Origin: an uncultured Candidatus Saccharibacteria bacterium
GTDB taxonomy: Bacteria > Patescibacteriota > WWE3 > UBA101185 > UBA10185
Reading direction: 5' to 3'
Length of the DNA stretch: 64,000 bases
NCBI GenBank assembly: GCA_964385105.1
Contig: CAYLMU010000002.1
Coordinates: 186,583 to 250,582, forward strand
Part shown: positions 1,634 to 6,643 of the stretch, piece after piece
Numbering within the stretch: position 1 is the stretch's first letter
How the letters are laid out: each line of letters starts with the position of its first letter
Made by a program: the position numbers and the translations under genes
Notes under the pieces: generated by a model
Seen by the model: the letters and a program-made list of their open reading frames with translations, nothing else
Told to the model about the DNA's origin: nothing
The model's database searches: none

Positions 1634-3013
1634 TTAATTTCTTGTTAGAGGTGAGTAAGAAGATTTTTTTATAATCTTAATGTTTTTTGCGTTTTTTTGA
1701 TTATTTAAATATGCATATATTATTTTATATGTGTCCAAGTCAAAATTATGATCTTTTAACCCCCAGTTTTCAATGGTAAAAGTATCAACTAAGCTATTCT
1801 CTTCATTTGATTCTATAATTTCAATAAAACCTTCAAATGGCCAGTTTTTTACTTTATTGCCTGATAATGCGGTATAAAGCCTAATATTATATTTCAACGG
1901 ATTTTCATTTTTTATACATGCACCGGAACAAATATTCAGTTTGTGCGAAAAACATGATCCCGACGTTTTTTCTAGCCCCAGTAATTTATCACAAAGATTA
2001 TATTCCTTTAAGATTGCCTGAAGAAATTGCTTTGCACTTTTTTTTCCGGTAAATATGCCATATGAATCTTTTATATTTTCGTATGTACATTCGTAACTAT
2101 CGACAATTTTAACCTCTTCATACCCGTCTTCATTTTTTTCTAAATTAAGCAGTACAAGATTGTGGTTTCGACGCAATTTTTTATTATATAAAGGTTGTAA
2201 TTGTTTAATTAATTCGGCTTCTTTAATCAATGCACCAAACTCACCTGCTGTATTAATAATTTCCAATCGATTTATTTGTTGAGCTATTTTTAAATCTTTT
2301 CCGTAAATATGATCGCCTGAAAAATGCGAAAGTACCCTTCTTTTTAAATTTATACTTTTGCCAATGTATATAGGCAAGTTGTTTTGTCCGTAAAATATAT
2401 ATACCCCGGGCGTCTCAGGAAGCTCATCCAGCACACTTTGCGGTATATTCAACGGAACAGAAGGTTTCTGCATATTTGAGTTAATGGCGCTTAGAACTTT
2501 TTCATGTGAAAAGTCTGTTTTTACTCTTTCAAAGAATTCCCAAATTACGGTTGCATCATCTAAAGCTCTGTGCCTATTTTTTACTTGAAAGTTAAACCTA
2601 TCTATAATTGCATCCAGATTGTGTTTTCTAAAGTTGGGAAATAGCTTTCTTGATAATTTTACTGTGCAGATTTGCGTTGCATTAAACTTTACTTCCTGAA
2701 GCCCAAACTCTTTTTTCAAAAATGCATAATCAAAGCGTACATTGTGTGCCACAAAAACACTATCATTTAAAAGTTCAAAAATTTCGTCTTTAAGGTCATA
2801 AAATGTCGGGGCTAATTCAAGCTCTCGTTCATCAATACCTGTAAAATCTAATATTTCTTTAGGAACATGGTCTTGCGGGTTTATGAGTGAATTAAAGACG
2901 TCAGTCACTTTTTCGTTTTCTACTCTTATTATTGCAACTTCAATAATTCTGCTTTTTGAAAGACTTCCCCCGGTAGTTTCGATGTCTACAAAAGATAGTT
3001 TATTTGGCAGCAT
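1634..3013 (-). CDS. DnaQ-like 3'-5' exonuclease fused to a GIY-YIG (Cho/UvrC N-terminal-like) nuclease domain
   Basis: Exo I motif FVDIETTG, Exo II HNVRFDYAFL and Exo III HRALDDA, followed by GIY-YIG (GVYIFYG...IYIGKSINLKRRVLSHF) and a Cys-rich UvrC-like segment. The ORF-track start at 3082 lies inside a terminator hairpin, so the start was moved to the in-frame ATG at 3013 (MLPNKLSFVDIETTG). Confidence 0.7.
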   Translation of the reverse strand: MLPNKLSFVDIETTGGSLSKSRIIEVAIIRVENEKVTDVFNSLINPQDHVPKEILDFTGIDERELELAPTFYDLKDEIFELLNDSVFVAHNVRFDYAFLKKEFGLQEVKFNATQICTVKLSRKLFPNFRKHNLDAIIDRFNFQVKNRHRALDDATVIWEFFERVKTDFSHEKVLSAINSNMQKPSVPLNIPQSVLDELPETPGVYIFYGQNNLPIYIGKSINLKRRVLSHFSGDHIYGKDLKIAQQINRLEIINTAGEFGALIKEAELIKQLQPLYNKKLRRNHNLVLLNLEKNEDGYEEVKIVDSYECTYENIKDSYGIFTGKKSAKQFLQAILKEYNLCDKLLGLEKTSGSCFSHKLNICSGACIKNENPLKYNIRLYTALSGNKVKNWPFEGFIEIIESNEENSLVDTFTIENWGLKDHNFDLDTYKIIYAYLNNQKNAKNIKIIKKSSYSPLTRN

Positions 3014-3052
3014 ATATTTGTGAATCGTAGCAAATCTTCGGGTTTTATTCAA

Positions 3053-3080
3053 CTTTTGAAAAGGGCGGCTTGCGCCGCCC
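3053..3080 (-). terminator. Intrinsic terminator hairpin after the acidic small-protein gene (minus-strand sense: GGGCGGC-GCAA-GCCGCCC then CTTTTC)
   Basis: A perfect 7-bp GC stem (plus strand 3063-3069 gggcggc, 3074-3080 gccgccc) in a ~30% GC genome, followed on the minus strand by a T-run. It sits 9 nt after the stop of the 3089..3292 gene. Confidence 0.6.
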
Positions 3081-3088
3081 ATAATTAC

Positions 3089-3292
3089 CTATTCCCAATC
3101 ATCATCACCGTCTTCATCATCAAAATCAAAATCGTTATCATCGTCTTCATCGCCAACACCTGGTAGACCATTTTCGTCCATATCGTTTGTTTCCATTTCA
3201 CGTTTTTTTCTCTTTTCTTCTTCATCCTCATCTAGCATGTCATCCATATCCATATCTGTTGTCATGTCATCAGTAGTATCAAAGTCTGCCAT
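3089..3292 (-). CDS. Hyper-acidic 67-aa protein (Asp/Glu-rich, C-terminal DFDFDDEDGDDDWE)
   Basis: ORF preceded by a perfect Shine-Dalgarno AAGGAGGTG (complement of 3300-3308) 7 nt upstream of ATG. A candidate TTGATT-N17-TATGCT promoter lies upstream and an intrinsic terminator follows. Composition is about 60% D/E. Confidence 0.65.
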   Translation of the reverse strand: MADFDTTDDMTTDMDMDDMLDEDEEEKRKKREMETNDMDENGLPGVGDEDDDNDFDFDDEDGDDDWE

Positions 3293-3299
3293 GTTAAAT

Positions 3300-3349
3300 C
3301 ACCTCCTTCAATATTACCTAGCATAAGTTGAACTTAATAATAAATCAAT
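3300..3349 (-). promoter_or_regulatory. Shine-Dalgarno (3300-3308) plus candidate sigma70-like promoter (-35 TTGATT at 3344-3349, -10 TATGCT at 3321-3326) for the acidic small-protein gene
   Basis: Read directly from the sequence; spacer is 17 nt. Confidence 0.45.
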
Positions 3350-3387
3350 ACATTTACAATGTATAAATTACTTTATAAAATTAAACT

Positions 3388-4870: not shown

Positions 4871-6643
4871 ATGTCAGAATATAAAATTGATGTACAGCAA
4901 AATAAAAGTAGTCTTGAAAGACTTATTTTTGAGGTTTCAAACTTAAGTAACCCAACAAACAATGAGCTATACAAGCTTTTCAAGAAAAATACTAGCAGTG
5001 ATGGCGATATGTTTTCAAAAAGTGATGTTATTATTGCCTACCGTAAGTTAAAAAGAAAAAAGCTATTTGAATTAACCGGCGACAAAGAAAAAAACTTTTA
5101 TAAAAACATTAAAATGAAGAAAATTCGTACTATGTCGGGGGTTACTCCTGTTACCGTTCTCACAAAGCCTTTTCCTTGCCCGGGCAAATGTATATTCTGC
5201 CCAAATGATGTAAGAATGCCAAAAAGTTACCTTTCTGATGAGCCCGGGGCGCAACGGGCTGAATCAAACAAATTTGACCCATATTTGCAAACGTTTAACA
5301 GGCTTGTTGCTTTTAGAAACACAGGCCACCCAACAGATAAAGTTGAGTTGTTAATTTTAGGAGGAACTTGGTCGTCGTATCCTGAAAGTTATCAAATTTG
5401 GTTTGTTAAACGTTGCTTTGATGCGATGCATGATTTTAGCCAGTCTGATACATCCGAAATGCTAGACCCAAAAACTGTAGAATACCCTTTTGAAGAAAAC
5501 AAGCTTTCAGAAATAAACGGTGAAAATATGCAATTGACTTACAATCAGGTAATTGCAAAAGCAACATTACAATTAAGAAAAAATCATGAAGAGTCGGCAA
5601 CATGGGAAGAACTATTTAAGGTTCACAAACAAAATGAAACCTCACCAACACGATGCGTGGGCTTGGTTATAGAAACAAGACCTGATGAAATTAATGAAAA
5701 AGAAGTTATTAGAATAAGAAAACTTGGAGCCACAAAAGTGCAAATAGGAATCCAAAGTTTAAACGATAAGGTTTTAAGCTTAAACAAACGCGGTCATGAC
5801 GTTAATCAAACAAAGCGAGCAATGTATTTATTGCGGTGTGCTGGTTTTAAAATTTTGGCTCATTGGATGCCCAATCTATACGGCTCAACTCCTGAAAATG
5901 ACATTAAAGACTTTAAAAAGCTTTTTTCAGATATTGCAATTAGACCTGATGAATTAAAAATTTATCCATGTTCATTAGTTAAAAGTGCTGAATTAATGAG
6001 ATATTATAATGATGGTTTATGGCAGCCGTACACAGAAGAGGAGCTATTACACGTGGCCGTAAACATTATGCCCGAAACACCCAGATATTGCAGACTTACC
6101 CGTGTAATAAGAGATATTCCGTCAATCGATATAGTTACCGGAAACAAAAAAACCAATTTTAGACAAATTGCCGAACAGGAAATAGCAAAAAAAGACAAAA
6201 AATTAAAAGACATTCGTTCAAGAGAAATAAAAACAAAAACCGCAGAAATTGAACAACTAGAACTAAAAATAACAAAATACAAAACAGCGGGAAGTGAAGA
6301 GTATTTTATAGAGTACATAACAAAAAATGACTTAATTGCTGGTTTCTTGAGATTATCAATTCCAAATACAGATGGTTTAAAAGCACAATTTATGCCTGAA
6401 CTTGAAGATATGCCAATAATTAGAGAAATTCATGTTTACGGGCAAAGTGTTGAAATTGGAAAAAACGATTCTTTAAATGTTCAGCATAAGGGATTAGGTA
6501 AAAATCTCATAAATGAAGCCAAAAAAATAAGTAAGCAGATGGGTTATTCTAAAATTGCAGTAATTTCATCAGTTGGAACGCGTGAATATTACAAAAAAAG
6601 TGGGTTTACGATGAAAGGTCTTTATCAGGTTTCAAATCTTTGA
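4871..6643 (+). CDS. elp3: Elp3-family radical SAM / GNAT acetyltransferase (tRNA wobble-uridine modifying enzyme homolog)
   Basis: Radical SAM CxxxCxxC (CPGKCIFCP) with the Elp3-specific flank GVTPVTVLTKPFPCPG and the YLSDEPGAQRAE motif. A C-terminal GNAT region (HVYGQSVEIG...HKGLGKNLI) is present; 590 aa. Confidence 0.8.
   Translation: MSEYKIDVQQNKSSLERLIFEVSNLSNPTNNELYKLFKKNTSSDGDMFSKSDVIIAYRKLKRKKLFELTGDKEKNFYKNIKMKKIRTMSGVTPVTVLTKPFPCPGKCIFCPNDVRMPKSYLSDEPGAQRAESNKFDPYLQTFNRLVAFRNTGHPTDKVELLILGGTWSSYPESYQIWFVKRCFDAMHDFSQSDTSEMLDPKTVEYPFEENKLSEINGENMQLTYNQVIAKATLQLRKNHEESATWEELFKVHKQNETSPTRCVGLVIETRPDEINEKEVIRIRKLGATKVQIGIQSLNDKVLSLNKRGHDVNQTKRAMYLLRCAGFKILAHWMPNLYGSTPENDIKDFKKLFSDIAIRPDELKIYPCSLVKSAELMRYYNDGLWQPYTEEELLHVAVNIMPETPRYCRLTRVIRDIPSIDIVTGNKKTNFRQIAEQEIAKKDKKLKDIRSREIKTKTAEIEQLELKITKYKTAGSEEYFIEYITKNDLIAGFLRLSIPNTDGLKAQFMPELEDMPIIREIHVYGQSVEIGKNDSLNVQHKGLGKNLINEAKKISKQMGYSKIAVISSVGTREYYKKSGFTMKGLYQVSNL

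Follow-up and report, generated by a model that had tools for sequence, protein, structure and literature searches.

A small hyper-acidic gene with strong translation and termination signals, conserved as a cassette in two Patescibacteria, and the possible roles of its product

In a stretch of 64,000 nucleotides of the contig CAYLMU010000002.1 (hereafter the window, in which all coordinates are counted unless stated otherwise), a minus-strand open reading frame (ORF) of 67 codons, rich in aspartate and glutamate, lies just upstream of genes for DNA-repair enzymes, which raises the question of whether such a biased sequence is a gene at all and, if it is, whether its product serves the neighbouring enzymes or acts on its own. 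The first-pass annotation of this stretch considered the ORF as an independently expressed gene, the product of which would carry a C-terminus like that of SSB, the protein that binds single-stranded DNA, and could regulate, or act as a decoy for, the downstream nucleases; all the elements it listed do fall inside positions 3053-3349 of the minus strand. The results presented here support a genuine small gene that is expressed on its own and has translation and termination signals of unusual strength; its product is best explained as a lineage-restricted protein of a chromosome belonging to Patescibacteria (candidate phyla radiation, CPR), of a Microgenomates-like type. The gene is real and absent from every family library searched, and the function of its product is one that we only infer.

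The coding sequence, stop codon included, occupies 3089..3292 on the minus strand, from an ATG at 3292 to a TAG at 3091-3089, and specifies the protein MADFDTTDDMTTDMDMDDMLDEDEEEKRKKREMETNDMDENGLPGVGDEDDDNDFDFDDEDGDDDWE. Aspartate and glutamate make up 34 of the 67 residues (24 Asp and 10 Glu, i.e. 50.7%, short of the 60% or so first estimated), with a pI of ~4.05, a net charge of ~-29 and a grand average of hydropathy (GRAVY) of -1.83. The basic residues number five, all in the single cluster K27-R31, and the aromatic residues four, namely F4, F55, F57 and W66. The length of the ORF by itself is not above chance expectation in DNA of 33% GC, and it is the unique Shine-Dalgarno sequence (SD), the unique hairpin and the cassette conserved around an ortholog in a related genome, designated L035, that place the gene beyond chance. 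Of note, the antisense frame (3089-3292, read on the plus strand) is also fully open, as it is at L035:4851-5168, and would give a Ser-rich product; this is a by-product of runs of GAT, GAC and GAA codons and, having neither an SD nor a suitable start codon, the antisense frame is not considered a gene.

Regarding expression, the SD AAGGAGGTG (3300..3308, minus strand) stands 7 nt 5' of the ATG, and this 9-mer occurs once across both strands of the window, where a recognisable SD is present at few other genes; the acidic cassette carries the strongest translation signal of the 64 kb, and its product is probably heavily translated, as judged from these signals. Starting 8 nt past the stop codon, an intrinsic-terminator-like hairpin (3059..3080, minus strand) is formed by GGGCGGC-GCAA-GCCGCCC (3080-3063) followed by TTTT (3062-3059), with a folding energy of -17.7 kcal/mol, and no other perfect 7-bp hairpin with six or more G/C exists in the window, the GC content of which varies from 27 to 37% in 2-kb steps and is mostly around 33%. 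The run of T after the hairpin is limited to four (TTTTCAAAAG), which explains why a scan for consensus terminators missed it. With its strong SD, its 67-codon ORF and its own hairpin terminator, the acidic gene is a monocistronic cassette. The SD and the hairpin thus stand much as first described; the candidate promoter fared less well, since the possible promoter region TATACA-17-TATTAT, with the block AAAGTAATTTAT (3337..3374, minus strand; block partly conserved in L035), came from a consensus scan as a 9/12 match, and such matches number 13 in the region against 12.3 +/- 3.1 in shuffled sequences.

Further evidence for a gene comes from the nearest relative by DnaQ/Cho protein (P0002, 67% identity), i.e. 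the product of the exonuclease gene downstream of the acidic gene. This relative is represented by the Logan contigs L035-L037, also from Patescibacteria, which share with the window the block Elp3-methyltransferase-SIMPL ... DnaQ/Cho-PrimPol-PBP (the latter standing for penicillin-binding protein) at 47-77% protein identity. By synteny, a 105-aa acidic ORF was found between SIMPL and DnaQ/Cho at L035:4851-5168, with the sequence MADFDLQDDIDMDDDDLLDE...RRKKK...DDFDLFDEN...DDFDEDEDDEDDWE and a GRAVY of -1.20. Both genes have in common the SD context AAGGAGGTGATTT-(3 nt)-ATGGCAGAYTTTGAT, in surroundings that are nearly identical (AAGGAGGTGATTTCTAATGGCAGAT in the window vs. AAGGAGGTGATTTAACATGGCAGAC in L035), and the terminator of L035 has the same stem, GGGCGGC/GCCGCCC, placed 7 nt after the stop codon and closed by the loop TTATAA instead. 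Both proteins share the N-terminal 22 residues (MADFD..DMD.DD.LDE), a basic cluster [KR]RKK[RK] and aromatic-acidic repeats, and both finish with DDWE, ahead of a TAG stop codon in both genes. Against composition-matched shuffles, the alignment scores a global z of 6.6 (0/2000) and a local z of 4.4 (2/2000), and an exact ADFD start or DDWE end has a frequency of 0.0004 in such shuffles. A synonymous codon differs at 12 of the 37 identical residues, and the indels separating the two genes, of 6, 42, 63, 18 and 3 nt, are all in frame. The acidic cassette, taken as a whole, is conserved in a related genome.

The distribution of this conservation is uneven. Invariant columns gather at residues 1-25, 28-30 and 49-67, with intervening indels of 14, 21 and 6 residues, such that conservation sits at both termini (ADFD..DMD.DD.LDE and DFD..DDWE-COOH) and in the basic cluster, the acidic linkers varying by ~40 residues. 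As delimited by pairwise alignment with the L035 homolog, the N-terminal motif MADFD-x2-DD[MI]-(x2)-DMD-x-DD-x-LDE covers residues 1-22 (3227..3292, minus strand) and the aromatic-acidic tail DFDFDDEDGDDDWE residues 54-67 (3092..3133, minus strand), the basic cluster KRKKR (residues 27-31; 3200..3214, minus strand) having RRKKK as its counterpart. F4, F55 and W66 are identical in the alignment; F57 lies opposite a gap, L035 having a DFDLFD repeat of its own. Conserved termini and a conserved basic cluster joined by variable linkers form a pattern typical of disordered proteins using short linear motifs. In line with this, the 67-aa protein is probably disordered, as predicted from its composition and by AlphaFold2, which returned a mean predicted local distance difference test score of 55.7, a predicted template modelling score of 0.18 and no residue above 70 on the former scale; the sole predicted secondary structure is a low-confidence helix over residues 23-35, around KRKKR. 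The model was computed from a single sequence and is weak evidence as to a DNA-mimic fold.

None of this was within reach of standard homology searches. The 67-aa protein had no match in a word-indexed search of 5.8 billion proteins, nor in an exhaustive phmmer search of 1.84 billion representatives, and a two-sequence profile built from the window and L035 proteins had none among the 5.8 billion proteins at E <= 10. It had no match in NCBIfam and PHROGs; Pfam (E <= 10) gave one sub-threshold chance line, NLS_NINJA_AFP (E = 0.63, 10.3 bits vs. a cut-off of 23.7), and the PDB chains, searched by profile and phmmer, a single chance match to WAVE1 (E = 0.45). No match was obtained by tblastn against phage genomes, and no family member was found in IMG/VR by protein patterns and two cassette DNA patterns; 74 IMG/VR matches to TGGGAATAG-N5-10-GGGCGGC were dismissed as chance, none having an acidic ORF upstream. 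The exact 67-aa sequence is absent from the protein cluster collection by exact-sequence look-up, and even the L035 protein, compared by tblastn with the 64-kb window with SEG off, gave nothing at 1e-3. The missing matches are attributable to composition-corrected statistics applied to a short biased sequence and are no proof that the family is tiny.

The same SD provides a further view of the company this gene keeps. The full AAGGAGGTG is rare, with 12 copies in ~210 kb of Patescibacteria loci (the window, L035 and L040-L046), of which 11 precede a start codon at the tested spacing. The genes behind these 11 copies encode four small acidic proteins, one BON/OsmY-like protein, one YflT-like protein and one protein with a mechanosensitive-channel domain, to which are added three micro-ORFs (23-31 aa) and a gene running off the end of its locus. 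Most genes in these loci have no recognisable SD. This suggests that AAGGAGGTG could mark a few genes that are highly translated and possibly linked to stress. Besides, homologous micro-ORFs of 23-25 aa, MEELVRKIIELFIPKPAPAYVKA and MFEEIIREILKLLGFKPNYAKVKAN, are located at L041:6044 and L043:6975 (plus strand), with perfect AAGGAGGTGA SDs and just 5' of genes for class A penicillin-binding proteins; their products may be small peptides of the membrane or with a regulatory role.

Regarding function, the explanation we tentatively favour, as plausible if still short of probable, is that of an abundant, polyanionic and disordered protein docking basic, probably nucleic-acid-binding partners via the motifs conserved at its termini, much as DSS1 does. 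The acidic protein would be made in large amounts; its aromatic/acidic end motifs (ADFD..LDE and DFD..DDWE), together with its bulk negative charge, would occupy the basic surfaces of at least one partner, these surfaces being probably nucleic-acid-binding, and the protein would thereby mimic nucleic acid, compete with it or serve as a chaperone, like DSS1 in eukaryotes, or like MsyB and DMP12 on HU, without depending on its neighbours DnaQ/Cho and PrimPol. DSS1, which is small, acidic and disordered, has conserved regions made of aromatic or hydrophobic residues between acidic ones and binds the oligonucleotide/oligosaccharide-binding (OB)-fold proteins BRCA2 and RPA, and its paralogue CSNAP needs a Phe/Asp-rich C-terminus for binding (PMC8442969). 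DSS1/Sem1 and CSNAP, at 57-70 aa, compare in size with the 67-105 aa found here and are likewise acidic and disordered, any helix being single and transient; conserved Phe or Trp flanked by Asp or Glu is a likeness in kind only. The 67-aa protein has no match to DSS1/Sem1 (PF05160) in Pfam at E <= 10, and a BLASTP comparison with human DSS1 gave E > 5. DSS1 and CSNAP are eukaryotic and work with PCI complexes, whereas the acidic protein is bacterial and without them; they also lack the KRKKR cluster and the exact DDWE-COOH end, and partner binding is proposed here by analogy.

Closer in taxonomic terms, the acidic MsyB of E. coli sequesters HU (bioRxiv 10.1101/2025.02.25.640118) and DMP12 of Neisseria is described as binding HU (PMC3643605). 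Like the acidic protein, both are chromosomally encoded, highly acidic and small, and they rival DNA for binding to a basic protein of the nucleoid. No sequence similarity links them to the acidic protein (no profile or phmmer match to the PDB chains of DNA mimics), which also lacks the clamp-binding motif (F)QLEPP of MsyB. Besides, MsyB and DMP12 are folded proteins. As far as sequence comparison goes, none of DSS1, CSNAP, MsyB and DMP12 is a homolog of the acidic protein. A Pup/UBact-type modifier was also considered and rejected, the C-terminus being DDWE and not GG[QE] and Pfam giving no Pup match; nor did the annotated neighbours, some ORFs of which were profiled, include a gene resembling a PafA/Dop-type ligase.

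The proximity of repair genes invites another explanation, namely that the protein mimics the SSB tail, or serves as regulator or decoy for the DnaQ/GIY-YIG (Cho-like) nuclease and the LigD PrimPol encoded downstream. These two genes are as announced by the first-pass annotation: on the same strand, profile matches identify a fusion of a DnaQ-type DEDD exonuclease with a GIY-YIG/Cho-like excinuclease (RNase_T 6e-33, GIY-YIG 2e-7, NCBIfam Cho 1e-56) and a stand-alone LigD primase-polymerase domain (5e-62). Same-strand adjacency, a position within 1 kb upstream of DnaQ/Cho in both genomes having the acidic gene, and an acidic tail with aromatics would fit such a role. The SSB tip is DDD[IL]PF with an invariant ultimate Phe, and the addition of one residue after this Phe cripples binding (PMC3632105). 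An SSB tip is also expected to bind, on partner enzymes such as exonucleases, a hydrophobic pocket rimmed by basic residues. What the acidic protein shares with this tip is a disordered chain, the last residues of which are acidic and have an aromatic close by, but SSB needs Pro-Phe with Phe last ([IL]-P-F-COOH), whereas both acidic homologs finish with Trp-Glu, have no Pro there and place the aromatic in penultimate position; the SSB tip is moreover tethered to an OB fold, whereas the acidic protein is free-standing, of 67 aa, and matches no OB-fold domain. The SSB gene of this genome does not lie within the 64-kb window, and among the window ORFs of at least 60 aa no other closes with PF or carries an acidic tail. 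The proposed coupling to the nuclease and PrimPol finds no better footing, as the -17.7 kcal/mol hairpin lies between the genes and speaks against co-transcription, and DnaQ/Cho has its own start codon and its own conserved upstream box; in L035, a convergent BON/OsmY-like gene is interposed before DnaQ/Cho and the acidic gene sits behind a phosphoribosyltransferase gene. Nor is the adjacency conserved across genomes: of the ten Patescibacteria DnaQ/Cho genomes reached by synteny, only the 67%-identical relative (L035-L037) has the acidic gene, the nine others having no acidic ORF in the stretch examined. Eight of these nine were scanned at the DNA level (L038/39 and L040-L046, with an upstream reach from ~0.2 kb in L045 to 10 kb) and the ninth was read by gene table only, with a YflT-family gene directly upstream of DnaQ/Cho. 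No acidic ORF was found either near 33 more distant DnaQ/Cho loci (15 from genomes and 18 from metagenomes), mostly from Bacteroidota or Lachnospiraceae at 30-52% identity. The overall synteny of the block, and not a functional module, accounts for the adjacency in two genomes, and we regard the SSB-tail and nuclease-regulator proposals as very unlikely.

Still less probable is a mobile-element protein for anti-restriction or anti-defence, mimicking DNA in the way of Ocr, ArdA or anti-CRISPR proteins. Many phage DNA mimics are acidic proteins of 50-110 aa, and the present protein is likewise small and strongly negative, comes with strong expression signals and shares its density in carboxylates with Ocr, ArdA, Ugi and p56. 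Such mimics, however, are rigid folds presenting charges with a DNA-like geometry, expected to occupy the DNA-binding site of a target protein, whereas the acidic protein is predicted to be disordered; it is encoded in a chromosomal block that is itself conserved, at a locus free of integrase, transposase and phage genes, and has no match in PHROGs, phage genomes or IMG/VR contigs. The fold similarity to Ocr, ArdA or DMP19 that had been envisaged found no echo in PDB sequences or profiles; a looser version, in which a polyanion imitates nucleic acid or serves as a decoy, could hold. At the far end of the scale, we give hardly any credence to a spurious low-complexity ORF without product, the conserved elements of which would serve, for example, an RNA. 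The lack of homologs in standard database searches, the open antisense frame and the ease with which such lengths arise by chance in AT-rich DNA would all be expected of one, but a spurious frame would account neither for the perfect SD, the conserved start ATG GCA GAY TTT GAT and the conserved end TGG GAA TAG, nor for a frame kept through indels and the synonymous differences at identical residues; besides, the window has no Rfam match. The contender to be taken more seriously, though unlikely in our estimate, is a bulk protectant without specific partner, i.e. a hydrophilin- or LEA (late embryogenesis abundant)-like shield, or a buffer of counter-ions or divalent cations (Mg2+, Ca2+ or metals), produced at high level in a general response to stress or dormancy. 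It would suit the extreme hydrophilicity of both homologs and the predicted disorder, the Asp-rich composition, the perfect SD shared in related loci with BON/OsmY-like and YflT-like stress proteins, the SIMPL/YggE-like neighbour and, in L035, the BON/OsmY-like one, as well as the general-stress genes (YflT, GlsB/YeaQ, KGG) often surrounding Patescibacteria DnaQ/Cho; within 10 kb are also metal-homeostasis genes (CopA, HMA-DsbD and a ZIP-like transporter, the last assigned from its sequence only), and a second, unrelated small acidic family has the same SD in other Patescibacteria. Against a protectant stands the conservation itself, which bears on the termini and the basic cluster and leaves the acidic bulk free in length, a focus indicative of specific recognition rather than of a bulk property. 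Inspection showed neither repeated LEA-type 11-mers nor EF-hand or DxDxDG loops, and an EF-hand or Ca-loop identity was rejected accordingly. Hydrophilins and LEA-like proteins are defined by Gly above 6% together with high hydrophilicity and repeated amphipathic motifs, and Gly represents 4/67 residues, a borderline 6.0%, in the window protein and, by hand count, 9/105 in that of L035.

Several points weigh against the partner-docking explanation as well. It draws on analogy, with no sequence or profile similarity to DSS1, any DNA mimic or any PDB chain. The AAGGAGGTG SD is also found on BON/OsmY-like and YflT-like stress proteins, and the acidic genes have SIMPL/YggE-like and BON neighbours; the sharing of the SD and these neighbours would suit a bulk protectant against stress just as well. 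High expression is something we infer from the signals in the DNA, and the family counts two members on three contigs, such that each conserved motif stands for one pairwise comparison.

Beyond this single family, short hyper-acidic proteins of 69-91 aa, MNDDNDDK... and MMSDDNDDKK..., make up another family encoded at L040:914-1189 and L042:1668-1877 (both minus strand), its genes carrying the perfect SD AAGGAGGTGA, as does the window gene. In L042 the acidic gene lies between tRNA-Arg and tRNA-Lys genes, and in L040 a tRNA-Lys gene is just downstream and a tRNA-Arg gene ~1.7 kb upstream. The L040 and L042 proteins are clearly related to each other (z = 13-16); a kinship of the window protein with them was rejected, the scores being equal to those of shuffles (z ~0). 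A second acidic family with the same SD indicates that small acidic proteins may recur in CPR genomes. A broader and rather improbable extension would be that the ultra-small cells of CPR/Patescibacteria devote top-tier translation to free-standing polyanionic disordered proteins, bacterial equivalents of nucleic-acid mimics of the DSS1 or prothymosin type, controlling nucleoid, ssDNA- or RNA-binding proteins by means of aromatic-acidic motifs at their termini; both the window family and the unrelated L040/L042 family would then be members of a class invisible to composition-corrected searches.

As for the genomic context, the window is a stretch of bacterial chromosome encoding TypA, CopA, histidine kinases, an ABC-F protein and glycosyltransferases; no tRNA was found in its 64 kb. 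Upstream of the acidic gene and divergent from it are a SIMPL/YggE-like gene, then a methyltransferase gene, then an Elp3-like radical-SAM/GNAT gene. This Elp3-like protein (4871-6643, plus strand; 590 aa, with radical SAM, Radical_SAM_C and GNAT domains), the gene of which adjoins that of the class I methyltransferase, is 69% identical between the two Patescibacteria genomes (L035:775-2511). On the other side, the close homologs of DnaQ/Cho carry Patescibacteria source names, including Woesebacteria and Roizmanbacteria. A 75-nt spacer with a conserved box precedes the DnaQ/Cho start at 3013, the true start being likely ATGCTGCC at this position (MLP..., 459 aa, MLPNKLSFVDIETTGG), which is conserved in L035 and fits the lengths of the homologs; the longer form of 482 aa, found in the NCBI-derived P0001, would begin at 3082, inside the hairpin of the acidic gene, and probably has an over-long N-terminus. 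The box, AAAACCCGAAGATTTGCTA (3028-3046, minus strand), stands 15-20 nt 5' of the start in both genomes, recurring as AAAACCCGAAACTTTGTTA at L035:5980-5998, where it follows a divergent gene and hence belongs to the DnaQ/Cho control region; a similar box, GAAGAAAAGCCAAACTTTTTAAT, is present in L043. Loosely resembling CGAAC-N4-GTTCG, it could be a candidate promoter or the site of a damage-response regulator. In Patescibacteria (L038-L046 and a JGI contig), DnaQ/Cho is often found amid YflT, GlsB/YeaQ (Transgly_assoc), KGG, BON and SIMPL genes, further neighbours including G6PD/6PGD and CopA/CsoR-like metal genes, with no fixed repair operon; PrimPol follows DnaQ/Cho in the window and L035 only.

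The acidic gene exemplifies a class that homology tools overlook. Families of this kind are systematically under-counted by such tools, which here missed a homolog that synteny and a shuffle test reveal. Regarding the biology of the organism, if the partner-docking explanation is true, this would be a rare case in bacteria of a free-standing disordered polyanion working via short linear motifs, a mode of regulation well known in eukaryotes, e.g. DSS1, CSNAP, prothymosin and the acidic tracts of histone chaperones, and barely documented in bacteria; it would moreover fall in the CPR, a lineage the cell biology of which is almost unknown.

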